This document shows, piece after piece, positions 2,641-34,173 of a stretch of DNA of 64,000 nt. A model generated the notes under the pieces. That model was not told where the DNA came from and searched no databases. It was given only the letters and a program-made list of their open reading frames with translations. The stretch lies in contig JAUWOU010000004.1 in NCBI GenBank assembly GCA_030612005.1, positions 4,238-68,237 of the forward strand, written 5' to 3'. How positions within the stretch are numbered: the stretch's first letter is position 1; each line of letters opens with the position of its first letter. Made by a program: the position numbers and the translations under genes. The DNA comes from Candidatus Thorarchaeota archaeon. GTDB taxonomy: Archaea > Asgardarchaeota > Thorarchaeia > Thorarchaeales > Thorarchaeaceae.

Positions 2641-2769
2641 ATCAAATCACGCGCAGGTCCGTCCTACTAATCACTCTTTTTTAGACTTTCCTCTTTTCAT
2701 TCTGAATATACAAAGGCGAAGGTTGATATGGACAGCATAGGAGCAGTCCCAGAAGACGGTGATACTGTT

Positions 2770-4116
2770 TTGGTTCTCGAAGGTCTTGGTAAATCACTTA
2801 ACTCGGCTCTGAAGAAACTCTTTGGTGCAAATGTCATTGACGAGGAATTGGTAAAGGAGCTTGTCAAAGACATACAACGAGCCCTGCTAGTAGCTGACGT
2901 CGATGTCAACCTTGTAATGGCAATCACTAAGAGAGTAGAAGAGCAGGCATTAGATGAAAACTTGCCTAGAGGAATTTCTCGACGAGAACATGTCATTCGT
3001 GTAGTCTGGGATACTCTTGCATTCTTTCTTGGAGAAAAAGCTGTACCACTGACCATCAATCCTGGGAAGCAAAATCTAGTAATGATGGTGGGTATTCAGG
3101 GTTCGGGAAAGACTACGACAATTGGAAAACTAGCCAGATACTATCAGAAGAGAGGGATTAAGACAGGGGTTATCTGTGCAGACAATTTCAGACCGGGAGC
3201 ATATAATCAGTTGATGCAGCTAGCTGAGAAATCAAACGTACCTTTTTGGGGTGATGAGGACGAGAAAGATGCAGTCAAGCTAGCGAAGAAAGGATTCAAA
3301 GAGATGAAGAAGAAGGGCATTGAATTAATTCTCTTGGATACTTCAGGTCGCCATAAAGAGGAAAAAAGTCTCATAAAGGAGATGCGTGATATCTCCAAAT
3401 CTGTTAAACCCCAAGAGATTATTCTTGTTATTGATGGTACTCTGGGACAACAGGCAGGAGTTCAGGCAGAAGCATTTCGTAAAGCAACTCAGATTGGATC
3501 AATCATAATTACAAAATTAGACGGTAGTGCAAAAGGTGGCGGAGCAATATCCGCAATAGCAGCAACGAAGGCACCAATCAAGTTCATTGGTCTGGGAGAA
3601 GGAATGGATGCAATAGAACCTTTCAATCCAACCAAATTTGCTGGTCGTCTACTTGGAATGTCAGACATTGGAGGCTTAATTGAAAAAGTCAAAGAGGCTG
3701 AAATCGAGGTTGAAGATGACGTTATGAAGCGTATCATGAAGGGACAATTCACTCTGAAGGATATGATGGCTCAACTCAACCAATTGAAGAAAATGGGTCC
3801 AATTGGAAAAGTGATGGAAATGCTTGGTCTCCAGTATAAACTTCCAGAAGGTATGGCTGAGGTTCAAGAGGAGAACATGAAGAAATGGGAAGTTATCATG
3901 AACTCCATGACAAAGGAAGAGATGGAAGAGCCCAAACTCATCAAAGCAGCAAGAGTCAAACGTATTGCTAAGGGTTCAGGTACATCTTTGAAGGATGTGA
4001 GAGACCTCCTAAAACAATACGACCAAATGAAGAAAATGATGAAACAGATGGGAAAACAACGTCGTGGAAGGAAAGGAGGCATTCCAGGTCTTCCAGGCGG
4101 TCTACCGGGAATGTAA
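2770..4116 (+). CDS. srp54: Signal recognition particle protein Srp54
   Basis: GIQGSGKTTT, DTSGRH, TKLDGSAKGGG, Met-rich M domain; TTG start at 2770 after GGTGA preferred over 2728. Confidence 0.96.
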   Translation: MVLEGLGKSLNSALKKLFGANVIDEELVKELVKDIQRALLVADVDVNLVMAITKRVEEQALDENLPRGISRREHVIRVVWDTLAFFLGEKAVPLTINPGKQNLVMMVGIQGSGKTTTIGKLARYYQKRGIKTGVICADNFRPGAYNQLMQLAEKSNVPFWGDEDEKDAVKLAKKGFKEMKKKGIELILLDTSGRHKEEKSLIKEMRDISKSVKPQEIILVIDGTLGQQAGVQAEAFRKATQIGSIIITKLDGSAKGGGAISAIAATKAPIKFIGLGEGMDAIEPFNPTKFAGRLLGMSDIGGLIEKVKEAEIEVEDDVMKRIMKGQFTLKDMMAQLNQLKKMGPIGKVMEMLGLQYKLPEGMAEVQEENMKKWEVIMNSMTKEEMEEPKLIKAARVKRIAKGSGTSLKDVRDLLKQYDQMKKMMKQMGKQRRGRKGGIPGLPGGLPGM

Positions 4117-4128
4117 ACTGGAATTGGG

Positions 4129-4710
4129 ATGACAATGCGACATTTCCTGATCCTATTTGATGACATTCCTATTGACAAGATATCAGTAAAATCAGGCAAT
4201 AATTCTCCTGAAGTTATCACAGCAGCAAGATGTGTGAATGTAGGACTTTTCATTTCAGGAAATCTACGAAGAGATGTAGTAGTATCTCTAGCTAAAGGAA
4301 CGCCGGATGACTTGAAACTCATCTCATTCCCAGGAGCTAGTCTGAAACGTGTTTCACCTGATGAACGATCAATCTCGTTCTTTCTAATGAAAGCCATTTC
4401 AATTGCTGATGGGTTATTGATGGATTCTTTTGAAATAATGGATAATGGGATTGAAGTGAGAAGATTTAACTTGAAGAATTTCTTCGAATCACTAAATCCC
4501 GATAGAGTCTATATATCAACCTCAGAGATTTCCTCTAACACCATAAATGTTACAGAGTATGAAAATTCACTACTAATCTACTCCATTGGAAAACAATTCG
4601 AATCATTACAAGCAGATGGCAAATGGACACAAGTAGAGCTACCCCATTTTCCACATCCAGAGAGATTCATTCTGGATGTCAATATGATAGTAGACAGAAC
4701 CTCTTCTTGA
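4129..4710 (+). CDS. TrmY-like SPOUT methyltransferase, divergent C-terminus
   Basis: ARCV..LFIS..LRRDV and LKRVSPDERSI match the TrmY N-terminal half; C-terminal SAM-binding motifs not recognisable. Confidence 0.65.
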   Translation: MTMRHFLILFDDIPIDKISVKSGNNSPEVITAARCVNVGLFISGNLRRDVVVSLAKGTPDDLKLISFPGASLKRVSPDERSISFFLMKAISIADGLLMDSFEIMDNGIEVRRFNLKNFFESLNPDRVYISTSEISSNTINVTEYENSLLIYSIGKQFESLQADGKWTQVELPHFPHPERFILDVNMIVDRTSS

Positions 4711-4737
4711 ACACGAAGAAAGCTTCATAAAAACCCA

Positions 4738-5148
4738 TACCTTACAATTGTGAGTGAACTGTAAGAGACTCCTGTGTTCCACCTTTCTCACGACTGCTGT
4801 CGCCAGCATCTGAAAGACCTGAGTCATCCAAAGAGTCGCAAGCTTTGCCCCTCTTCACTGGAACATCGTTCCTCCGATGGGACTTGGCTTCTGTCCGCTG
4901 CATTGACTCACACGCACCAGTAGGTGTGATAGCAGTCGGTGTTTCCACAGCATTTACCATGGCAGGGTCTTCACTCCTCGCAAACGACTCAAGAGTCGCC
5001 TGGTCATAGGGGTCGGCCACGGACTCCCCTTTCAAGGCTGGTGTCCTCTGGGGGAGTGCGGACTTCCCATGAGAAGAACGAGTCTTCCTCCGGGCTTTCA
5101 GTATGGCTCTATCTCTAGGAGTGAGCCACATCCCTAGTCCGTTCTCAT
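4738..5148 (-). ncRNA. Putative long omegaRNA/reRNA overlapping the tnpB 3' end
   Basis: Collinear homology and compensatory pairing with the stand-alone copy at 25597-26050; position typical of TnpB reRNA; ends approximate. Confidence 0.7.
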
Positions 5149-6478
5149 TTCTCAGTGAAGGAATGAGCATAATAAGGCGCTTTCCAATGTTGATGGCGCC
5201 ATTCAGGTCGGCGTTCAGTTTTTGTCCACAGGTGGTACAGATGAAGAGGTTCTGTCTGGGTCTCTGTCCCTTGTGTCCACACTTGTGACACATGATTGAC
5301 GTCCATTGCTCAGGGACTGCCTTGAACTTTTTGGGGTTGAATCCAAGGGATGTAAGCTTGTGTTCTAATTTATCACGGACTCTCGCAAAGGCCCAGCGAT
5401 GGATCATCCCTCTGTACCTTCGTCCTCTATAGTTACCTTTTCGAGCAGTATTCCTGATTCCCTTCAGTTTCCCAATTGACACATAGAGGTCATATTGCCT
5501 AGTCATCTCTCTGATGTAAGCAGAGATATCTTTCACAAGCTTCTTGTCATGTTCTTTACTGACACGTTCGCGCTTTCCACTTAATTCCCTAAGCTGGGCA
5601 GTTGCTCTATCAGGATTTCCACCCTTGGTAATGAGTTGTTCCTTCTCTCGTTGAAGGGAAGAAACTCTCTCATCCAAGTTTTTCATACGCTGGAGCTTGT
5701 CTGGCTGTTTCCAGTATCGAATCTGCCTGTAGCCCTTCCTTGTGAGAAGGACTGAACATGCAGCCTTGTTAATCCCAAGGTCGATGGACAATACAGCAGG
5801 GGGTTTTCCAGTAGAATCGATTTTCTCAACAGCGAGAGTCACCGTGAAGATAGCCCACCACTTCCGACGAGAATCCTTGAATATTCGGACTGTCTTGACC
5901 TCCCCCTCTTTCATCCGATTGAGATGGAAGGAGGAGATGGAGAGGGGAATCATGAGTTTGTCGTGACGCTTTCTCTCTTCAGAAACTGAATCCAAAGAAT
6001 CTCTAAGCTTCAACCAGTGACGAATCTCAAGATTTGGATTATAAACCAACTTGAAACGTTTGTTAAAAGCAAAGCGTGGGATCTTCCGTGTGGAATATCC
6101 CCTAGTACGTAATGGCTTTGCACCACCCCGTTCAAGATAGCTCTGCCACATGGCAATAGCTGTATCTCGACACTCCTGAAACTCATTTACAGAGATGTTT
6201 GGAAACCTAACTTTGAAGTCATGAGGTACATAACTTCGGTCCGCCTTTCCTTTAGAAGCAGTCAGGGTGAGTTCTTCCAATTTTGAGGTGTCAATTCTCG
6301 TTCGTTTCTTACCTGTCAGTAACTCTTCTTCACACCTTTCAATCACTCCTAGATACGCCTTGATGACTCTACTATCTCTACCAGTTATCCGGTTGAGGCG
6401 AGTCTTCTGATTATCAGTCATCGAGTCCCATCTGATTGGAACCTTCACACTGATTATTGTACCCTTGGAGCGACCCAT
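4742..6478 (-). CDS. tnpB: Divergent TnpB-family RNA-guided endonuclease with rearranged RuvC and ~135-aa tail overlapping its RNA
   Basis: RuvC-I SIDLG, Zn ribbon CHKC...CTTC, RuvC-III NADLNGAINI; RuvC-II reads VSIGKL, with PEQWTS downstream. Confidence 0.85.
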   Translation of the reverse strand: MGRSKGTIISVKVPIRWDSMTDNQKTRLNRITGRDSRVIKAYLGVIERCEEELLTGKKRTRIDTSKLEELTLTASKGKADRSYVPHDFKVRFPNISVNEFQECRDTAIAMWQSYLERGGAKPLRTRGYSTRKIPRFAFNKRFKLVYNPNLEIRHWLKLRDSLDSVSEERKRHDKLMIPLSISSFHLNRMKEGEVKTVRIFKDSRRKWWAIFTVTLAVEKIDSTGKPPAVLSIDLGINKAACSVLLTRKGYRQIRYWKQPDKLQRMKNLDERVSSLQREKEQLITKGGNPDRATAQLRELSGKRERVSKEHDKKLVKDISAYIREMTRQYDLYVSIGKLKGIRNTARKGNYRGRRYRGMIHRWAFARVRDKLEHKLTSLGFNPKKFKAVPEQWTSIMCHKCGHKGQRPRQNLFICTTCGQKLNADLNGAINIGKRLIMLIPSLRNENGLGMWLTPRDRAILKARRKTRSSHGKSALPQRTPALKGESVADPYDQATLESFARSEDPAMVNAVETPTAITPTGACESMQRTEAKSHRRNDVPVKRGKACDSLDDSGLSDAGDSSREKGGTQESLTVHSQL

Positions 6479-6865
6479 TCATTTCACCTGAGCTGATTTA
6501 AACTTCTGACCTTTCTCTTTCGAGTTCACTCCCATCTTTGTTCCCAAGAGTGGTTATGTACTCGTACTATTTTCTATTACATTAACTGATTTAAACTTAT
6601 GAAGCAAAAATACAAATTGACCTGATTCTCTTAACTAATAGAAAATAATACACTAAACGTATTGCAAACAAATTATAATTACTTATAAATAAGCGTACAT
6701 ACTACTAACTGCCTTGGTGGAACCCAAAATGAAGGAAATATGGTGTTTTCTGGATCATACAGGATGGTTCAGAAGTGTATTAGAAGCCAATAGATTCACC
6801 TTATGGAACGAGGTAATTCTTGAACTACAGGAATATGGGGTCCACCCCAGTAAAGATGCTAAAAT

Positions 6866-6947
6866 ATTATGTACGTCCGTACATAATAAACAAATTTCTA
6901 TGTACGTGTGTACAGAGTGTACCGATTTTTCTGTACAACCGTACAGA
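6866..6947. promoter_or_regulatory. Three TGTAC-N4-GTACA palindromes at 31-bp period
   Basis: 6870-6883 TGTACGTCCGTACA, 6901-6914 TGTACGTGTGTACA, 6932-6945 TGTACAACCGTACA, just before GAGGAGGT RBS-like sequence. Confidence 0.7.
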
Positions 6948-6961
6948 GGAGGTATGAATCA

Positions 6962-7618
6962 ATGACTACAACACAATTAGAGACCCATCCCCCTCTAGAT
7001 GATATTCAAGAGTTCAGAAGATCCGAGTCAAACACAATCTACATCAAGAGCCCAATCGTGCAAGGAGTAGCTGGACTATTGATTGGTTCTGTCTGGCGTG
7101 TGGACTATTCTGATAGATCAATACGTCTACTTAATTCTAATCTCATATCACATCATGAGAAGGTTCCTCTTACTCCGTTTTCCATCCCTGATAGACATCT
7201 CCGTGCTGTTCGAAAGATTGGGGCGGCATTGTTCAATGTGCGACGATTTGATAGACTATTCCTTATTGACAAGACTGTTTCATCAATAGGGTATGTCGTC
7301 AATCGAGATGACGAAACTCGTCTGTTTGTAGACCGCACAGATGCTGAGTTGTATGTTTCCCAGATAGGTGAAGGCGCAGAGATAGTGACCCAACCACTAA
7401 CGAAGAAGACAACCCGTAATGCTCAGAGGAATAGTGCAGAGATTCGGACTGAGATGCTTCGACTGATGACTCAGTTCATGACCGGGACGGGTGCATTGAG
7501 GCAACTCAAGACCCTGAAAGAAAGAGGGGTAGACCCCAAAGAACTAGAGAAGATCTGGTGTGATGCACATGAACAAGACAATATCCCAGCTATCCTTGGG
7601 ACGTTCCTCTACGAGTAA
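6962..7618 (+). CDS. Hypothetical protein (~218 aa), first gene of a two-gene unit
   Basis: Open frame, RBS-like GAGGAGGT at ~6946, ATG at 6962; no recognisable motif. Confidence 0.7.
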   Translation: MTTTQLETHPPLDDIQEFRRSESNTIYIKSPIVQGVAGLLIGSVWRVDYSDRSIRLLNSNLISHHEKVPLTPFSIPDRHLRAVRKIGAALFNVRRFDRLFLIDKTVSSIGYVVNRDDETRLFVDRTDAELYVSQIGEGAEIVTQPLTKKTTRNAQRNSAEIRTEMLRLMTQFMTGTGALRQLKTLKERGVDPKELEKIWCDAHEQDNIPAILGTFLYE

Positions 7619-10600
7619 GGAACAGAAAATCCTAGGTATGAGGATGGTTCCGGCGCAGCCTGCAAAGGTCCTAGCTAATTCCATCTACGCAGGTTTAGCA
7701 GCTCTTGTCAGGCTTGCAGAACGACGCGTGACAAAGGACCCTGAGGTCATCCGTCTGTTCAATGAGATCAAGCAGATGTGGAAAGAAGCATGTGCCGAGT
7801 ATAAGCGATTGAAGAAGATGGGAATCCCTGACTTTTCACTGATTTTGAACATTGAGCATAATATGAGAAAGAACTACCTTGGGATGCTATGGTACAGTAC
7901 ACGACCCTTTGGAAACACAGAATACAAGCGAGTCTATCGATGGAGAGAAGGGACCATCGGACCACTCAATGAACTCCTCAACTATGCAGGGGCAGAACTG
8001 AGGAGTGTCGCAGCCAAATACTACAGCTTCCCTTTGGTGCAATATTATCAGGTCAGAGAACTTTCAGACAAAAGGGTGGATTTTGTCCACAAGAGCGTTG
8101 CACCGAAGTATCCTCCAGAGAAGGGAGTGAAGGTCTCGTGGACAGCAGCTTATCCAGGGAACTCAAAGCATCCTCTTGTCCGTGTTAGACACTCCACCCT
8201 TCCGGAGATGGACTTTATTGACATGATACGAGCTCATGTGATCGAGCTGGTCCGTCAGTGTTTCATACATAATGTTCCAAAGATGGCCTCCAGGAGGTAT
8301 ATTCGACTCCTCATCTATAGACTGCAACCCTTCCTGGACTGGGTGTATACTGATAGAGCTCAGGGGCGAGGAAAGTTCTGGCCAGATGCAGACAAGGTCC
8401 TTCGTGAGATGGTCCTTGAGGTGCGAGCAAGATACAGCAGGCGCTTAGGAAGGACTCCACGACTCACCCATCAGATTGAGTCTGGTTCAAGGAAACCCTC
8501 GATGGCGGACATAGTGACTCAGATCAACAAAGCCTACAGACAGGACACTTCCAAAAAGATGAAGCAGACTACCAGTGAACTTCTGAAGTTGATGGGTTAT
8601 TCTGTAGATAAGAAGAGAAAGACACTCACACTGAGAGCAGACACCTCACCTGCCATGAAAAAAGCACTTACAAAAATTGCTAAAGATATGAAGTACAAAA
8701 CCAGAGAGGTCAAGGAGTTCAAAGAACCTATCAAATCTGCCCTTACTGATGATGATGCACAGGACCTCTATGATAATATCCTCAGTCTGAGCCAGCGAGA
8801 GGGGAATGACTGGCATAGAGTACTCTTTGGAGATATGTTCCACCCCTCATCCCTGCGACAGCTTGTCTATGCTGGGGACAAATTTCTGGATGATACATCG
8901 GAATACTTGATCGCAGCTGAGGTCCCTGTGAAGAGTATCTCTGGGAGTGGACAGGCAGATATTGTGGTGTCAGTACGACGGTCCGTTGTTGGAGAAATTC
9001 TATACACCCCGATCGTGACGTTTGATGTCAAGACAAAGACTGGAATAAACTGGACTATGCGCGGAAAGCAACCGCGAACGAAGAAGGAAGACTCGCGGAT
9101 TCCAGGGCTTGTTGTTCGAAAGCGAGCATTGACTTCCACTGAGTGGTCTCGAATAGTCAATAGTACACCTAGCCCCACAGAACTCTCACAACTCCAGAGC
9201 TATGAGTCTGGTCTGCTAGAAGAGTATAGGGAATTGGTGAAGCAAGATCCAGACCACCCTAAGACCCTCTGGAAGGGAATCGTGCTATTGGACAGTGATG
9301 AGGACCGTGAAACTCTATTCACCCTCCTACCGGAACTTGTGAAATCAGTCATCAGCGACCTGAAGACTGGTCCATCCCCAGACGGACGGACCCTGTACAC
9401 ACTGAATTCACAAGGAGTTAAAAAAAGAGGGCAGTATAAGTTTGGCATAGTCTTGCTTCCAGCACTGGGACCGCACCATCTGCTTAAGCAGGCAATACCC
9501 ATTGAATCTATCATTGAAGATGATCCCTTCAGAAACAGGGTCAAGGATGATGTCCACTTCACCCTGTATCTGACAGTTCCCTCTGGAGGGTCTTCTGGTG
9601 AGTCTGCAGCATGGATATCGCGCAACTGGCATCTTTTACACTATCTGTCTGACCTTAGAGAAACCTCTGAAAGACAGAATATCAAGTGGTTAGATCTGAC
9701 TGGGGTACTCGCAGAGAGCGGTGTACGTCTTCAACGACTCCGTCTCGTTGGAGACCAGAAGCCCAGGAAGTTATCAAGAAGAAGGTTGGAATCCCTCCAA
9801 CAGCTAACAGAAGAGATTGAATTCCATGACCTCAGTAGCAATCTCAAGGAGTACTTCTTCTCGGATGCTACCACTGCCATTGAGGAGCTTGAAGCACAGA
9901 TAAGAGAGTGTATACAGCAGGCATCAGATGAGAGGTCTATTATCGTCGTAGATGGATGGCCCCAGCTTCGTAATATCATCCCCTCTCACATGGACTCATT
10001 ATTGAAGACCTTAGAACATAGGATCATCGAGTGGCTGCCAAAGGAAGATGCAGAGGTCATCTGGCTTGATAGACCAGTTCCTGTCCCGATACTGTCTGCT
10101 ACCTATCAGTTGCACAGGATGACTCCCCTACCTCACGACTCACCCAGATGGTTTCTCCTTGATGAGGTCATATGGAACCTCCCGACCTCTCCCCGAAATT
10201 TTGGATGGAGAACCCCTCGAAGGGAGGACATCAGGGTCATTGCACAGGACACTCCTACCTCGAATAAGCCAAGGGTGCTATCCTTCGGAGTTCCACACTT
10301 GAAGGGGTGGGCACGACGGTTTCGAGCAGACTCTAAGAGAGAGCGGACGGTTTCAGTGGATGAGGTGTTTGGTGATAATGAAACCTATGGGCGTGCGTTC
10401 TACTCTGCATCGTATGTAAAGGTCGGTCTTGGCTCTAGAAAGATCATACTTGATGATATCTACAAGTTAGTACCCAGTCTGAGTAGAGTCCGTGATACAC
10501 AGAAGGGGTCTTCAGATGAATCATCGAAGAATAATTCTCAATCAAAGTATAGAGTGAAGAGACAGATTCTTGGAAAGACCTCATCCTCTAGGGGAATCTG

Positions 10601-12503
10601 GGATCGAGTGTCCTTCATTCAGCAAAATATGGAGCCTCACCGAGGTCGACTTGGCACATATTCATCCATTGAGGATATCACCAGGGGCAAGGTCAGGAAA
10701 CCCTCCCGTGAAACCCAACTAGTATCAAGAACATCACGACGACCTCCGGTTGTGCGACCAACTCCTGTAGAGTTAATAGACACAGACCAGACCCGACATG
10801 ATGAGATCCTTCGTATAAAAAGAACTGTAGAGTTCTTGCTGCCCAAGTGTGATATTTTTGATGAATACTGGGAGGGTGTTCTGAAGAGTACGCTCAAGCT
10901 CTGTAAGAAGTATCAGAGGGGAGAGAATACATCTCTTGATACCTTTGACCAGCTACAGAAACTCTATGCGAAGCTTGAGGGCTCCCGAGACCTCTGGAAG
11001 GACCTCTCATATGAACGAAGATTTGGTAGCGGTCGTGAACAGATCCCTCGAAGTATACTCTCCGTAGTACGAGAAAAGCCAGAGCTCATCACTAGGTATG
11101 GGATTCCACTCTTCCTATTACTTCAAGGAGTAATGAGTGAGGACGACTCAGAGTCTTTGAAGGTCCATGTACCTACCCTTTGGAGCGCAGTGGCAGACTG
11201 GCAATGGGTGCACATGGGTTTCAACCCCCAGAATGACCAGCAGGGACTTGCACAATATAGATTTGATATTCCTGCCCTATGGTCAAATCTTCTCTGGAGA
11301 GCACAACAACTCGCCTCAGGACCTGTCAAATCTAGGCTTTTTGAGAGTCACAAGATTGGGGAACTTATTCCAAGGGGTGATGACCAAGTGTGGCTGGTCT
11401 TTCAGGAAAAGCCAAGGAGTGAGAAGATGATTGCAGGACTCCTCACTGGAGTCAACATGACTGCTCCACTACGGGGTACTTATGAAACAGTAGTAGACCT
11501 CGGTAAACTAGCAGCTTCTGTTGATTACACCCTGGATGAGTCTTCTGATGAACGACAGACCATCATCATCACTCGATTTGATGGGATGGACCTCCTTTGG
11601 GCAAAGCACCTGGAAGAGATTGATGATTCGGATTGGGCGCTCCTTGGAAAGATCAGATACAGAGCACCGAAGGAGGGGATAAGTGCTCCAATCAGAGGAG
11701 TCACTATCTCAGGGGTACCGAAAAAGGTCATTGAAAGAATACCATTTCCTGATGATACTGCCATTCCCTCAGACCTCAGAGTACGAGTGGATGAGAGTCT
11801 GAAACAGATCGTGAGTGATGCAGACCCAGTTCAATCAGTGCGTATCAATGTCACTATCAATGAAGAGTCGGGTTCGTATCTCATCAATCTAGTGGGACAA
11901 AATGAGGAACTCCTAGAGGAACTAGAATATGAAACTACTGATGAGGTGATCGGTTTCTTACGAAGTCCGATGACCAGGGGCGATTATTATCAGGCAGAGG
12001 ATGGTCGGCTGTATTCTTGGAATCCCCTGAAGGACGTTTCGTATGATGATGAGGTTGAAACAACAAATGGACTGTTGAGTCTGACCTTCCTTCGGCCACG
12101 AGTGGAGAATGAGCTATTTCTCAATGGAACATATGTCCTTCCGAGGACTGCACAGGAAGTCATTGAAAGTGAGTTGGGTGAGGAAGTCGTCATGGTGGCA
12201 ACACCGGACCTGGCCCGGTATAGGAAGGGTTGGAAACGGTGCTGGAATGTCTGGTTCATGAAATCTGATCTTGGCGAGGGAATGCGGTCAATGGAACAGG
12301 TATCCTGTACAATCTATGATATTGCATTACTCTTTGAGTGTGAGCAGATATTCGATGTTGATATGAAGAAACACTATCCAACATGGACATCAGTCAACCA
12401 TCTAGCTGAGGTCAAGATTCCAGATGAACTAATTCATCATAGTCGAATGGGACAGCATATGGATCTCAGAAACCTCGCTGAAAAGTATGGGTTATCTTAT
12501 TAG
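7560..12503 (+). CDS. Very large hypothetical protein with PD-(D/E)xK nuclease-like motif and degenerate P-loop-like region (start possibly 7638)
   Basis: 4.9-kb open frame; AEVPV...GQADIVV...FDVKTK...QLQSY; PSGGSSGES and SIIVVDG. Confidence 0.6.
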   Translation: MMHMNKTISQLSLGRSSTSKEQKILGMRMVPAQPAKVLANSIYAGLAALVRLAERRVTKDPEVIRLFNEIKQMWKEACAEYKRLKKMGIPDFSLILNIEHNMRKNYLGMLWYSTRPFGNTEYKRVYRWREGTIGPLNELLNYAGAELRSVAAKYYSFPLVQYYQVRELSDKRVDFVHKSVAPKYPPEKGVKVSWTAAYPGNSKHPLVRVRHSTLPEMDFIDMIRAHVIELVRQCFIHNVPKMASRRYIRLLIYRLQPFLDWVYTDRAQGRGKFWPDADKVLREMVLEVRARYSRRLGRTPRLTHQIESGSRKPSMADIVTQINKAYRQDTSKKMKQTTSELLKLMGYSVDKKRKTLTLRADTSPAMKKALTKIAKDMKYKTREVKEFKEPIKSALTDDDAQDLYDNILSLSQREGNDWHRVLFGDMFHPSSLRQLVYAGDKFLDDTSEYLIAAEVPVKSISGSGQADIVVSVRRSVVGEILYTPIVTFDVKTKTGINWTMRGKQPRTKKEDSRIPGLVVRKRALTSTEWSRIVNSTPSPTELSQLQSYESGLLEEYRELVKQDPDHPKTLWKGIVLLDSDEDRETLFTLLPELVKSVISDLKTGPSPDGRTLYTLNSQGVKKRGQYKFGIVLLPALGPHHLLKQAIPIESIIEDDPFRNRVKDDVHFTLYLTVPSGGSSGESAAWISRNWHLLHYLSDLRETSERQNIKWLDLTGVLAESGVRLQRLRLVGDQKPRKLSRRRLESLQQLTEEIEFHDLSSNLKEYFFSDATTAIEELEAQIRECIQQASDERSIIVVDGWPQLRNIIPSHMDSLLKTLEHRIIEWLPKEDAEVIWLDRPVPVPILSATYQLHRMTPLPHDSPRWFLLDEVIWNLPTSPRNFGWRTPRREDIRVIAQDTPTSNKPRVLSFGVPHLKGWARRFRADSKRERTVSVDEVFGDNETYGRAFYSASYVKVGLGSRKIILDDIYKLVPSLSRVRDTQKGSSDESSKNNSQSKYRVKRQILGKTSSSRGIWDRVSFIQQNMEPHRGRLGTYSSIEDITRGKVRKPSRETQLVSRTSRRPPVVRPTPVELIDTDQTRHDEILRIKRTVEFLLPKCDIFDEYWEGVLKSTLKLCKKYQRGENTSLDTFDQLQKLYAKLEGSRDLWKDLSYERRFGSGREQIPRSILSVVREKPELITRYGIPLFLLLQGVMSEDDSESLKVHVPTLWSAVADWQWVHMGFNPQNDQQGLAQYRFDIPALWSNLLWRAQQLASGPVKSRLFESHKIGELIPRGDDQVWLVFQEKPRSEKMIAGLLTGVNMTAPLRGTYETVVDLGKLAASVDYTLDESSDERQTIIITRFDGMDLLWAKHLEEIDDSDWALLGKIRYRAPKEGISAPIRGVTISGVPKKVIERIPFPDDTAIPSDLRVRVDESLKQIVSDADPVQSVRINVTINEESGSYLINLVGQNEELLEELEYETTDEVIGFLRSPMTRGDYYQAEDGRLYSWNPLKDVSYDDEVETTNGLLSLTFLRPRVENELFLNGTYVLPRTAQEVIESELGEEVVMVATPDLARYRKGWKRCWNVWFMKSDLGEGMRSMEQVSCTIYDIALLFECEQIFDVDMKKHYPTWTSVNHLAEVKIPDELIHHSRMGQHMDLRNLAEKYGLSY

Positions 12504-12558
12504 TGGTAAATCTTACATATTTTCTTACATTTTGCGTTAGTTGCTATTTAGGAATCTA

Positions 12559-12683
12559 TTATCTACGAAGAAACAGAAGACTTCATAATGTCATATTTTC
12601 CAGAATATACTTGACTCCTATTGCCTACTAATGTTACTCCAGAATTTGACAAGCAACGGCTTATCTACGAAGAAACAGAAGAC
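12559..12683 (+). repeat. Exact 23-bp direct repeat TTATCTACGAAGAAACAGAAGAC (12559-12581 and 12661-12683)
   Basis: Read directly; one copy intergenic, one inside the 5' end of the GTPase gene. Confidence 0.9.
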
Positions 12684-13796
12684 ATAGCGCAGCGGATAAT
12701 AGAATTAGAAAAACTTCTGTCTCTTGCCCCACGCCATAAGGGTGGGGAACGAATGGTAGGAGACTACCGAAAGAAACTAGCTCAGCTCAAGGCACTATTA
12801 GAGAAAAGACGAGAGCAAGATAAAGCCAGAAAGAGTGGAGGTACAGAAGAAGGAGTCGTTCGGAAAGAAGGCGCTGGACAAGTTTGCTTGGTGGGAGTAA
12901 CAAATTGTGGAAAATCAAGCATCATTAACGCTGTGACAAATGCAACTTTTGACATAGGAGATTATCCATTTACTACACCTATACCAACTCCAGCAATGCT
13001 AACTTTGGAAGACATCAACATCCAACTTGTAGAACTACCAGGAGTGTTCAAAGGAAGTCATAAAGCAGGAATTGGCAGACAGGCTCTTGCAGTAGCTAGA
13101 AACACTGACTGTATCGCAATAATCATTGATTTGTCACAGGACATCGATACTCAGATGAATGTAATTCTGGGTGAATTGGATGCTGCAAGAATTAGGTTGA
13201 ACAAGGAGAAGACTGCTGTTAGAATTGAGAGGGTTGGTCTCGGCGGTCTCATGATCTATGGTGCTCAGAATTATCAAGGTGATATTGAAGAAGTAATGGA
13301 ATATCTAAGAGCACGCAGAGTATCAAACATCATTGTCAGATTCCAGAAACCAGCCACTTTCGAACAACTCTTGGATGCAATGGATGCGAGTGTTTCTTAT
13401 GTACGCGCCATGGTAATTGCAACAAAGGGTGATTCGGAAGGATCTGAAGCAAGATTCAAAGAACTGGAAGAAAAATACAGTACAAGATTCGATATCATTC
13501 CAATATCTGCCGAAAAAGGAGAAAATCTTGATGGAATGAGTTGGACACTCTACAACCATCTTGATATTCTGAGGGTATACACCAAGATACCCGGACAGAA
13601 GAGGGAAAGGAAACCAATAGTCCTACCTGAAGGTTCAGTAGTTGAAGATGCAGCCGGTAAGGTTCACAAGGAGTTGTTTGTAGAACGCTTCCGGTCAGCT
13701 GTAATCCTTCGAGAAAATGACAAAATTAAACGTAGAGTTGTTGGTCTTAACTATCCACTCCAAGATGGCGACGTTCTTCAACTGGCACATAGTTAG
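12621..13796 (+). CDS. DRG/OBG-family GTPase with TGS domain
   Basis: GVTNCGKSS, YPFTT, ELPG, TKGD, C-terminal TGS (RVYTK...LQDGDVL). Confidence 0.88.
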   Translation: MPTNVTPEFDKQRLIYEETEDIAQRIIELEKLLSLAPRHKGGERMVGDYRKKLAQLKALLEKRREQDKARKSGGTEEGVVRKEGAGQVCLVGVTNCGKSSIINAVTNATFDIGDYPFTTPIPTPAMLTLEDINIQLVELPGVFKGSHKAGIGRQALAVARNTDCIAIIIDLSQDIDTQMNVILGELDAARIRLNKEKTAVRIERVGLGGLMIYGAQNYQGDIEEVMEYLRARRVSNIIVRFQKPATFEQLLDAMDASVSYVRAMVIATKGDSEGSEARFKELEEKYSTRFDIIPISAEKGENLDGMSWTLYNHLDILRVYTKIPGQKRERKPIVLPEGSVVEDAAGKVHKELFVERFRSAVILRENDKIKRRVVGLNYPLQDGDVLQLAHS

Positions 13797-25360: not shown

Positions 25361-25596
25361 ATAATTTCCGTTGAAGATTGTAAGAAAATGTGTTAAATAT
25401 TCATTAAGATAATAGTTTATGAATATTTGACACTTATTAATCAAATTAGAAATCAAACAACACCCAATCAATATCTCAATTCCCCCTTCATTTCAGTGGT
25501 ATCTAAGTATGAAAAAGCTCAGAAATCTACTAAGATATTTTCTTCGTATTTAGAGAAATTGAATGAGCTCATATACTCGCACTAGTATGTAATAGT

Positions 25597-26050
25597 ATGA
25601 GAGGACTAGGTATGTGGACTAGAGCAGTTGTTCGAGGAACAACTAATCGACGTGCGCGACTGAAAGCCCGAAAGAAGAAACCTTCTTCCAAAGGGAAGTC
25701 CTTACTCTCTATAAATGAACCAACATCAGGTTCCGGAGAGTCCGCGGCTGTTCACTTTGTCCAGTTGGACCTTGTCAGTTTCTGTGATGGAACGGGTGAG
25801 AGTGATAATGACCCCGCCGTGGTAAGAACTGTGGAAACGCTCACTGTCGTTGGAAGTGATGTATCAACATCAGTACAGGAGAAAGAAGCCAGGTCTTCAG
25901 GAGGGATACCATCCCGATGAACGTCGACAAAGCTCTTGCTAAGTTTAGCATTTTCTCGAAAATGCTGGATGGTGGTGACACTGGCAGGAGAAGGGCGGAA
26001 CATAGAAATATCTTACAGTTAAGAATTACTCACCATTAAATGTAGGATAT
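25597..26050 (+). ncRNA. Stand-alone copy of the TnpB-associated long structured RNA (no tnpB gene attached)
   Basis: Collinear blocks shared with reverse complement of 4738-5148: GGACTAGGxATGTGG, CTGAAAGCCCG, GGGAAGTCC, GACCCYGCCRTGGTAA, CTGTGGAAAC, AGAAGCCARGTC, GAGAARGGYGGAACA, TCTTACAGTT. Confidence 0.75.
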
Positions 26051-32801: not shown

Positions 32802-34173
32802 GGCGCGGTCTAAACAGCTGCGTAAATCCTGAACGAACCTAGACATCAATGAAACCAATAGTTGAATAAAGACTATTCTTGTATGAGCTTATTAGCTCCC
32901 AGCAAGACCCATTATCGAACCTGAATGTTGATCAACAAGGCTTACAGGTATGAACTGGACCCGAACAACATCCAGAGATCATCCCTTGCTCAACATGCTG
33001 GAGTAGCTCGTTTTGCCTATAACTGGGGTCTCGAGAAAAGGATTACACGGTACAAGAACAATCAGGGTGACGACCGGTTCACTAACGCTATGAAGCAGCA
33101 CAAGCTCCTCAACTCCCTGAAGAAAATAGAGTTCCCATGGATGTACGAAACCTCGAAGTGTGCACCCCAGGAAGCCCTGAGAGACCTCCATAGAGCCTTC
33201 AAAAACTTCTATCGAGGACTCAAGTCTGGGAAGAAAGTCGGATTCCCACGTTTCAAGAGGAGAGGAGTCAGGGACAGCTTCAGACTGACCGGGGCCATCA
33301 GGTTCCACGAGCGAGCAATCCAGCTCCCTAGAATCGGAAAAGTTCGTATCAAAGAGAAGAGGGAGCACTATTACAAGGGAAGGATACTCTCAGTCACAGT
33401 GCGACGAAGGGCCAACAGGTGGTTCGTGTCAGTCACTGTGGAGGAGAACATCATTGACCCGCAGCCTGTAAGAGGGGCATCAGTGGGGGTCGACCTGGGA
33501 GTGAAGACTCTGGCCACACTCTCGGATGGGACCACCTTTGCAAACCCACGAGCCCTTGGAAGACGCTGAGGAAACTGCGACAGCTCTCAAAGAGCCTGTC
33601 ACGAAAGGAGAAGGGGAGCAAGAACCGCGAAAAAGCGAAATTACGACTTGCAAAGATGTACTTGAGGATCTTCAATGTCCGACGAGACACACTGCACAAG
33701 CTGACGACCTACCTTGCCAAGAGCCACAGTAAGGTAGTGATCGAGGACTTGAATGTGTCAGGGATTCTGAAGAACAGAAGGCTTGCAAGAGCCATAGCTG
33801 ATGTGGGGTTCTACGAGTTCAGACGACAGTTGGAGTACAAGTGTGGATGGTACGGTTCTGAGCTTGTCGTCGTTTCAAGGACCTTTCCCTCCTCGAAGAT
33901 GTGTTCACAGTGTGGGCACAGGAAGAAGGAACTCTCTCTATCAGAGAGGAAGTATAATTGTGATCAGTGTGGACTTGAAATCGATAGGGACCTCAATGCT
34001 GCACTGAATCTAGTCGCCGTCAGTTTGCCGGAGACTGAAAACGCCTGCGGAGAGGAAGTAAGACATAGCAAATCTTCCGAGATTTGCAATGCAGCCTCGA
34101 TGAAACAGGAACCGAACATCATCCCGGACTCGATATCCAGGAATGTCTAGGTTTCGGGGAACGGCGCGGTCTA
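32802..34173 (+). mobile_element. Non-autonomous IS607/IS605-type tnpB element without transposase
   Basis: 11-bp direct repeats GGCGCGGTCTA (32802-32812, 34163-34173); inverted AACCTAGACAT/ATGTCTAGGTT (32836-32846, 34143-34153). Confidence 0.7.
32925..34150 (+). pseudogene. tnpB: Canonical TnpB split by a one-base frameshift near 33565
   Basis: KAYRYELDP..ARFAYNWGL and VGVDLG in one frame; RKLRQLSKSLSRK..., VIEDL, CSQC..CDQC, DRDLNAALNL in the next. Confidence 0.85.

Follow-up and report, generated by a model that had tools for sequence, protein, structure and literature searches.

What carries a TnpB with a displaced catalytic glutamate through the genome of an Asgard archaeon, and which protein moves it? 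This question is raised by a tnpB gene in a 64,000-nucleotide stretch of contig JAUWOU010000004.1 (hereafter, the window) from a Candidatus Thorarchaeota archaeon whose genome assembly (GCA_030612005.1) is divided into 271 contigs totaling 3.64 Mb, with a completeness of 90.9%. An initial annotation described the product of this gene as an Asgard TnpB with a Fanzor-like rearranged RuvC site and no transposase, either active or domesticated. In this report, we demonstrate that the gene is not a solitary IS1341-like tnpB. It is one arm of a transposon, the other arm of which is a giant gene that encodes a protein of 1647 residues. Our preferred interpretation, which we consider probable, is that a TnpB of the Ealt type and its omegaRNA are carried by a mobile, Cas1-linked transposon of the Thorarchaeota that also gives rise to RNA-only derivatives. 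The coordinates of the individual features are collected in Table 1.

The assignment of the 578-residue open reading frame (ORF) to the TnpB family, and of its active site to the Ealt type, is as good as certain. The ORF was matched by the NCBIfam model guided_TnpB (NF040570) at 107.7 bits (cut-off 100) and by Pfam PF07282 (Cas12f1-like_TNB) at 4.9e-14 and 52.7 bits (cut-off 26.3). The AlphaFold2 model, built from an alignment of 33 sequences, has a predicted local distance difference test score (pLDDT) of approximately 80-90 in its core, and the model and its Foldseek matches display the WED/REC, RuvC, and zinc-finger fold of a TnpB. The best Foldseek matches were AsCas12f (5e-16), the TnpB of ISFba1 (1e-14), and the TnpB of ISDra2 (6e-11); the mimivirus Fanzor2 (ApmFanzor2, 9b0l, 7e-11) was found lower in the list than Cas12f and TnpB. 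A sequence search of the PDB returned the TnpB 9nzp (2.4e-8) and then several Cas12f proteins, and no Fanzor at E <= 1. The close homologs carry Candidatus Thorarchaeota names, in agreement with the Asgard origin initially proposed, and the full-length ones contain 578-585 residues. There are 15 paralogs in the host genome at 48-84% identity. Relative to the copy on contig C189, the body of the gene has accumulated 56, 38, and 170 substitutions at the first, second, and third codon positions, and it is under purifying selection.

The residues to which attention had been drawn were confirmed in the ORF by script: D233 within SIDLG, G336 within VSIGKL, E390 within VPEQWTS, and D424 within NADLN. 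The two CxxC motifs begin at residues 397 and 414, and E390 precedes the first of them with a spacing of six residues (E390-QWTSIM-C397). In the AlphaFold2 model, G336 lies in strand beta4 (330-337), E390 directly follows strand beta5 (385-389), and the helix at 423-438 begins at D424. The canonical D-E-D triad, with its glutamate on beta4, is therefore absent; glycine occupies that position and E390 is found instead. A glycine or proline at the canonical RuvC-II position together with a glutamate six residues ahead of the first CxxC is the Ealt arrangement, and by reading, the sequence also matches the expression D{P}G...ExxxxxxCxxC...CxxC...D given in PMC10711439. The catalytic triad would then consist of D233 on beta1, E390 just past beta5, and D424.

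This pattern is conserved. Both G336 and E390 are present in 15/15 of the same-genome paralogs, and in all 14 paralogs that cover the respective regions D233, D424, and a RuvC-I motif of DLG are retained. When 1.84 billion cluster representatives were scanned with HMMER, 1884 matches were obtained at E <= 1e-3, 73 of them at E <= 1e-30. In an alignment of the query with the 68 matches of at least 350 residues among the 150 listed (the 82 shorter ones were left out), the D-G-E-D pattern was found in 57 of the 69 rows. The four rows with the canonical glutamate at position 336 have proline or alanine at position 390, and Glu336 and Glu390 thus behave as alternatives. Such mutual exclusion would be expected if either residue completes the active site. 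The conserved catalytic set and the purifying selection on the gene body indicate that the protein is probably an active RNA-guided nuclease with a relocated RuvC-II glutamate, as had been suggested. What tempers this conclusion is that the proposed geometry of E390, D233, and D424 is drawn from topology and from published models of relatives.

The shifted-glutamate arrangement, known as Ealt, RIIr, or "TnpB2", is already described and is not new. Rearrangements of RuvC-II are reported for two major clades and eight large branches (Altae-Tran 2023 PNAS, PMC10691335); "TnpB2" is the name for proteins with the shifted site, of which TvTnpB and a Fanzor (ApmFanzor) cleave DNA without collateral activity (Jiang 2023 Sci Adv, PMC10530073); and Ealt designates the glutamate six residues ahead of the first CxxC (Yoon 2023 NAR, PMC10711439). 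The initial annotation had treated the rearranged site as established knowledge, and the first two of these sources bear this out. The window protein shares with this group the glycine at the beta4 RuvC-II position, the glutamate six residues before the first CxxC and after beta5, the NADxN motif of RuvC-III, the C4 zinc finger, and an omegaRNA situated at the gene's 3' end. It differs in that its ORF reads through the whole omegaRNA module.

The suggestion that the protein bears on the transition from TnpB to Fanzor finds no support. Fanzors and the cyanobacterial pro-Fanzors have DPG at RuvC-I and were traced to cyanobacterial IS607 elements in PMC10711439. The link to Fanzors is unsupported here because RuvC-I reads D233-L-G and not DPG, and the nearest solved relatives are Cas12f and TnpB. 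With Fanzors and pro-Fanzors the protein has in common the Ealt position of the glutamate and the overall TnpB fold. Its homologs are found in Thorarchaeota, whereas the Fanzor and pro-Fanzor hosts are eukaryotic, viral (giant viruses), or cyanobacterial, and its partner is a Cas1-like protein rather than an IS607 serine recombinase. To judge from its residues, the protein is an ordinary Ealt TnpB and not a Fanzor-like intermediate.

The tnpB gene lies within an element of 7.85 kb that extends from 4731 to 12558, or to 12580 when a 22-nt junction filler is included, and we are highly confident of these borders. The element starts at 4731 with AAACCCATACC..., and its far end is retained in a copy on contig C171 and in short derivatives up to ...GGAATCTA, which stops at 12558. 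The empty site was found in four genomes of the same genus (G008, G010, G007, and G003), in which the trmY-like and GTPase genes are adjacent with ...GAAGAAAGCTTCATAATG... between them. The 8-bp sequence CTTCATAA occurs once in each of these empty sites and twice in the window. The insertion occupies a short spacer between these two housekeeping genes.

An exact 23-nt direct repeat connects the junction (12559-12581) with the interior of the GTPase gene (12661-12683). The copy within the GTPase gene is the original because it is present in three of the four relatives with an empty site (G008, G007, and G003). From this comparison, the 22 nt at 12559-12580 are read as a junction filler copied from nearby DNA, which could be a product of either templated repair or capture. 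A duplication of 16-18 bp at this site was considered and dropped in favor of the 8-bp duplication plus filler, the filler being identical to sequence of the neighboring gene.

Including the window, seven insertions of this genome were considered, six of which were further ones probed against five relatives. The window and the insertions on contigs C12, C225, and C8 each gave a two-sided empty site, as did, in rearranged form, the one on C254; the relatives probed yielded none for the derivative on C92, nor for C174 and C131, which carry full elements. The tnpB family is demonstrably multi-copy and mobile, and this, with the empty sites in relatives, leaves the idea of a domesticated TnpB unsupported. 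The duplicated sequence measures 8 bp in the window and at the C225 derivative and 7-8 bp at the C12 derivative, and the near (omegaRNA) end is constant (...GTTCACTCACAATTGTAAGATATGGGTTT). Two observations count against the preferred interpretation. The C8 derivative, the far half of which is atypical, has an overlap of 2 nt only, and the starting point of the far end differs among the three copies that were mapped (window, C12, and C225; loci L024 and L028), with a ATGTAAGA-like motif kept in all three. The combination of a constant 3' end, a ragged 5' end, and a junction filler is unusual for a cut-and-paste element.

The element also exists in reduced form. The 5' side of the stand-alone copies of its right end adjoins the last ~240 bp of the 1647-residue ORF, such that position ~5144 is joined to ~12315 with ~45 nt of other sequence between. 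The copies of ~0.6-0.7 kb are therefore internal-deletion derivatives of the ~4731 to ~12558 unit. The ~45-nt stretch upstream of the module is common to derivatives such as L023 and L024, contains the TATA-like TTCATATA, and is absent from the full element; it may be a promoter of their own. A second full unit is split between two contigs: its tnpB lies on C189 (83% identity), and its giant gene lies on C171, where an identity of 82.6% extends over 5.6 kb to the contig edge.

The giant gene is read divergently from tnpB and has a coding signature of 206/130/448 by codon position. Its 62 homologs are hypothetical proteins, mostly from Thorarchaeota and a few from other Asgard archaea. With tblastn the gene was matched on 32 host contigs, including partial matches and the 3' remnants within the derivatives. 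Residues 29-988 (960 residues, 55 sequences) were modeled with a pLDDT of 87.0 and a predicted template modeling (pTM) score of 0.85. In a full VIA structural search, run against representatives, 10/10 of the rows covering model residues 1-254 were Cas1 or casposase proteins aligned to the catalytic helical domain of Cas1. The best of these was 8flj_A (Z 13.2, root-mean-square deviation 3.8 Å, 175 residues aligned), and others included 4n06_B (Z 12.1), 7kft_D (Z 11.8), and the casposase 6opm_A (Z 10.9). Model residues 270-608 matched MGME1 (5zyt_A, Z 7.8) and Cas4 (8d3l_I, Z 7.8), and residues 634-930 matched 2ekd_A (Z 11.3) as well as Elp456, KaiC, RadB, RecA, and RAD51 paralogs. Foldseek with the 960-residue model recovered the RecA-like domain only, and weakly (RAD51 paralog, 5.6e-5); the Cas1 and Cas4 matches come solely from the full structural search.

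Six residues of the N-terminal domain are invariant (E93, N109, N113, H183, D193, and R196 in model numbering) and are found in the context GPLNxLLNYAGA ... HPTLPxLDFVDMIRAH. They resemble the E/H/D set of the Cas1 motifs, to which we take them to be equivalent. In the second domain, the invariant residues E426, D439, K463, and K465 fit a PD-(D/E)xK site. Several results count against a Cas1 assignment. The best Z score of 13.2 is close to the level of about 13 that helical folds can reach by chance; a Pfam search of 28 members of the giant-protein family found nothing shared; the Pfam Cas1 model had no match over the whole genome; and a profile search of the PDB with the giant-protein alignment returned chance-level rows only. 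Comparison of the giant protein and of a 236-residue ORF within the element with Pfam, NCBIfam, and PADLOC gave nothing above noise, and the ESM Atlas held no usable match for the C-terminal third of the giant protein. The fact that every N-terminal row is a Cas1, together with the invariant residues, adds weight to the fold comparison, and the N-terminus appears to be Cas1-like. On this model we lean toward the giant protein as the transposase of the element. The earlier statement that no transposase accompanies this tnpB no longer holds, since a candidate transposase gene, the product of which has a Cas1-like fold, is divergent to it in the same mobile element. What does stand is the lack of a tnpA: Pfam Y1_Tnp found none in the 90.9% complete genome, other transposase families not having been searched genome-wide.

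The two genes are paired well beyond the window. Within the host genome, the giant gene is the divergent neighbor of 8/15 tnpB paralogs, and three more are cut by contig ends; the remaining 4/15 are without an adjoining giant gene, which counts against our interpretation. The gap between the two genes is 205-290 nt in seven other same-genome pairs and 1082 nt in the window, where the 236-residue ORF lies between them. A scan of species-representative genomes yielded 51 giant-protein loci, 35 of which were testable (at least 1900 nt upstream). Cross-species pairing was observed at 24/35 of these, the divergent neighbor being a TnpB of this family with 42-84% identity, and a truncated TnpB was seen at 6/16 of the shorter loci. 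Nearly all of the 51 loci are titled Thorarchaeota and one is titled Ignavibacteria. The latter (L091) contains the giant gene and a truncated TnpB and is a probable binning error, because the other loci are from Thorarchaeota or archaea. The 236-residue ORF has paralogs on C171 (67%), C189 (33%), and C185 (30%) and no usable match in the ESM Atlas. Among the three ORFs of the element, the Pfam matches above threshold are to TnpB models only.

The last 414 nt of the element, which overlap the 3' end of tnpB and end at the element boundary, very probably constitute a structured RNA module rather than a protein domain. In a BLASTN comparison of the locus with the host genome, the segment from 5144 to approximately 4730 (minus strand) emerged as an independent repeat. 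Two copies are full-length (window and C189); ten others stand alone, each at least 300 nt long and 85-92% identical, with five shorter pieces besides, mostly at contig ends. All of the copies start at one exact base, which corresponds to tnpB codon 445. Between the window and C189 the tail is 92% identical in nucleotide sequence vs 80% for the gene body, and its substitutions are distributed 12/10/9 over the three codon positions; the variable sites in ten module copies are distributed 35/38/37. RNAalifold predicted 127 pairs for nine copies, with 98.3% of the cells paired vs 39-43% when the partners were slid, and with 10 compensatory pairs, mainly in two helices, vs 0-4 when slid; because this alignment also served to derive the structure, the test favors it. 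An Rfam scan of 4300-7000 at E <= 1 found no family. The constraint acts at the level of the RNA, and the module is placed like an omegaRNA, overlapping the 3' end of tnpB and stopping at the border of the element.

In metatranscriptome contigs from four runs in four studies, positions ~4789-5154 are covered with a summed depth of up to ~600; the tnpB body has no cover in three of these runs and a little in one, and the last ~58 nt of the module are uncovered in 3/4. Such contigs reveal neither the strand nor the ends of a transcript. Their depth may also owe something to carried-over DNA and to the copy number of the module, which in the genome exceeds that of the gene body. The cover is therefore a mere hint of expression.

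A second subfamily of the element in this genome has an ORF that ends ~110 nt earlier, and the downstream sequence is still kept. Many stand-alone pieces of 350-460 nt of its module (L053 on contig C174, query 1222-1600) are found in G008 and G010; RNA-only derivatives thus occur in both subfamilies. The stretch that precedes the GTTCACTCA motif differs between the two subfamilies, yet it is conserved within each of them whatever the insertion site. In subfamily 1, sequence peculiar to the individual copy starts at the border of the element; in subfamily 2, it starts directly after GTTCACTCAC. Subfamily 1 has an additional 19 conserved nucleotides, which pair with the scaffold by folding back on it (helix 22). 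Because the stretch before GTTCACTCA is conserved and variation starts at the border or at GTTCACTCAC, the guide is more likely to be the flanking DNA, as in other TnpBs. Elsewhere in the window, 25594-25899 (plus strand) gave a weak translated match to tail residues 444-534 (46%, E 2e-6) and may be a diverged stand-alone omegaRNA module.

Cas1 variants of Asgard archaea, termed aCas1, are said to have been defined by Makarova et al. in 2020 (CRISPR J). In the main text of PMC10691335, aCas1 genes replace the usual transposases beside two Asgard-linked groups of TnpB and are considered the likely transposase because the loci are repeat-flanked; a conserved GTTCACTCA is noted downstream of the aCas1-associated tnpB, preceded by a hypervariable stretch as a possible guide. 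The element in the window fits these aCas1-TnpB transposons. By description, it resembles the Cas1H-Asgard-1 and -2 groups of that text in its Asgard host, its Cas1-like gene beside tnpB (by fold, the sequence models being silent), its GTTCACTCA downstream of the nuclease core, and its repeat-flanked, proposed transposon structure. It is unlike them in that the stretch preceding GTTCACTCA is conserved within each subfamily and the variation starts at the element border. A literature search gave no further description of aCas1-TnpB elements beyond PMC10691335, the supplements of which were outside its reach. Four points worked out here go beyond that main text, although some of them may already be in print: an 8-bp length for the duplication, empty target sites, derivatives that arose by deletion, and a Cas1-Cas4-RecA architecture for the partner. 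Aloposons were rejected as the home of the giant gene; the accessible text of PMC8813620 describes tandem genes of 3000-6000 residues and insertion into tRNA genes, and no TnpB.

Other mobile elements are less similar. The asymmetric ends, the right-end omegaRNA read into the flank, and the short non-autonomous derivatives are shared with the IS200/IS605 and IS1341-type elements and their PATE/MITE derivatives. In contrast, no Y1 TnpA was found in the host genome; the present element is 7.85 kb long with genes on both strands, and it has a target-site duplication. Transposition by Y1 enzymes is not known to make a target-site duplication. Casposons carry a family B DNA polymerase (PolB) and terminal inverted repeats and generate duplications of 14-15 bp. 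The window element shares with them a Cas1-fold protein as presumed integrase, which is matched by a casposase, and the duplication of the target. In contrast, it has no PolB gene, and its duplication is 8 bp; no terminal inverted repeats are seen by eye in its two asymmetric ends, no repeat search having been made. The Cas1 match is limited to the catalytic helical domain, with the residue equivalence presumed, and this domain is fused to Cas4-like and RecA-like domains.

Three other explanations deserve to be weighed against this interpretation. The loss of the canonical RuvC-II glutamate could mean that the TnpB is nuclease-dead or domesticated and, like a TldR or Cas12m, serves the host as an RNA-guided repressor. 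This is very improbable, since the compensating glutamate is present in every paralog and accompanies the glycine in most rows of the alignment, and relatives with the shifted site cleave DNA (PMC10530073). Moreover, a multi-copy gene with empty sites in relatives is the opposite of an immobilized state, and neither the lost catalytic residues nor the single immobile copy of a TldR was found. It is also improbable, if somewhat less so, that the 134 C-terminal residues of the TnpB form a true protein domain and that the stand-alone copies are gene fragments. No full-length homolog has its frame interrupted within the module, and 6/11 stand-alone copies keep it open as well (a stop is present in the other five), which argues against an RNA-only tail. 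A disordered tail is thus likely to be made by read-through translation, perhaps with mild selection for read-through. Against a protein domain stand the lack of a third-position excess, the higher nucleotide identity of the tail than of the gene body, the pLDDT below 50 for residues 459-578, the helices with compensatory changes, and the kept sequence beyond the earlier stop of the second subfamily. The stand-alone copies, furthermore, all begin at precisely the same base and include the opposite end of the element.

A weightier alternative, although still an unlikely one, is that the giant protein is a cargo or a partner with a function in end processing, repair, or defense, and that the mover is encoded elsewhere or is the 236-residue ORF. 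There is no sequence-level Cas1 signal, the 8-bp duplication departs from the casposon length, the far ends are ragged, and four of the 15 tnpB paralogs and all of the short derivatives have spread without a giant gene. On the other side, divergent pairing is kept across species, every N-terminal fold match is to Cas1 or casposase with invariant residues like those of the Cas1 E/H/D set, and the Y1 search of the genome was negative within the limits given above. Against the 236-residue ORF, which is the only other one in the window's element, stands the gap of just 205-290 nt between the matched genes in the seven other pairs. The Cas1-linked transposon with an Ealt TnpB and omegaRNA therefore remains the interpretation that we prefer.

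Table 1. Features of the transposon and its surroundings (window coordinates)
Feature	Position	Strand	Remarks
SRP54 gene	2728-4116		flanking gene
TrmY-like tRNA methyltransferase gene	4129-4710		flanking gene
Target-site duplication, omegaRNA-end copy	4723..4730		CTTCATAA (+ strand)
omegaRNA-like structured RNA module	4731..5144	-	element right end; overlaps tnpB codons 445-578
GTTCACTCA motif	4751..4759	-	conserved in both subfamilies of the genome
tnpB ORF, 578 aa	4742..6478	-	nuclease core ~aa 1-444 (window 5147-6478)
tnpB key residues			D233, G336, E390, D424; Zn finger C397/C400/C414/C417
Intergenic region between divergent genes	6479..6907		presumed promoters; similarity to C189 ends at 6616, to C171 starts at 6927
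236-aa ORF inside element	6908..7618	+	coding signature 53/36/100 vs C171 copy
Giant gene, 1647-aa ORF	7560..12503	+	divergent to tnpB
Cas1-like alpha-helical catalytic domain (predicted)	7644..8405	+	structural search
Cas4/MGME1-like PD-(D/E)xK nuclease domain (predicted)	8451..9467	+	structural search
RecA/KaiC/RadB-like domain (predicted)	9543..10433	+	structural search, Foldseek
Giant gene, C-terminal third	10434..12503	+	model ends at aa 988
Element far end	12504..12558		two TCTTACAT motifs (ATGTAAGA on - strand)
Filler between far end and duplication	12559..12580		22 nt
Target-site duplication, far-end copy	12581..12588		CTTCATAA
DRG/Obg-like GTPase gene with TGS domain	12621-13796		flanking gene

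The other TnpB of the window, which the initial annotation had used for comparison on account of its VVIEDL motif, is present at ~33734 on the plus strand. It is split into ORFs at 32925-33569 and 33656-34150 (214 and 164 residues), with the canonical glutamate in VVIEDL and a DRDLN motif for RuvC-III. The locus at 32925-34150 resembles a typical TnpB that has been disrupted.

The life cycle that we propose for the element would proceed as follows. The giant Cas1-like protein would integrate the element via an 8-bp staggered cut. The tnpB transcript would pass through the 414-nt structured RNA to the element boundary, and because the RNA ends there, its 3' extension would read the flanking DNA as guide. 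The TnpB with its omegaRNA would then cut an emptied or naive site, and the element would consequently be restored or retained by homologous repair, a homing role like that in IS200/IS605 and IS607. The ~0.6-0.7-kb derivatives keep the RNA module and the far end alone; they would be moved in trans and would supply extra guide RNAs.

A bolder joint reading combines these parts into a hybrid of a Cas1-Cas4-RecA integrase with a guide-RNA TnpB, in which the derivatives are dispersed guide-RNA genes, each transcribed on its own, and the 22-nt filler is the trace of a capture of nearby DNA by Cas1/Cas4. We regard this as quite improbable. If it were true, two halves of CRISPR biology would reside in one transposon, one nuclease would be armed with at least a dozen guides, and the 22-nt filler, copied from a gene 100 nt away, would represent spacer-like acquisition outside a CRISPR array.

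The shifted catalytic glutamate is by now textbook knowledge for a large part of the TnpB family. The Cas1-linked TnpB transposons of Asgard archaea, on the other hand, occupy one paragraph, without an experiment, in the literature text that was accessible. The window provides a complete and bounded copy of such an element, with empty sites, an 8-bp duplication, an omegaRNA module that has left traces in metatranscriptomes, non-autonomous derivatives, and a partner protein modeled with confidence as a Cas1-Cas4-RecA fusion. Two questions about this family thereby become testable: can an enzyme of the Cas1 family serve as transposase to an RNA-guided nuclease, and where do these TnpBs have their guide?

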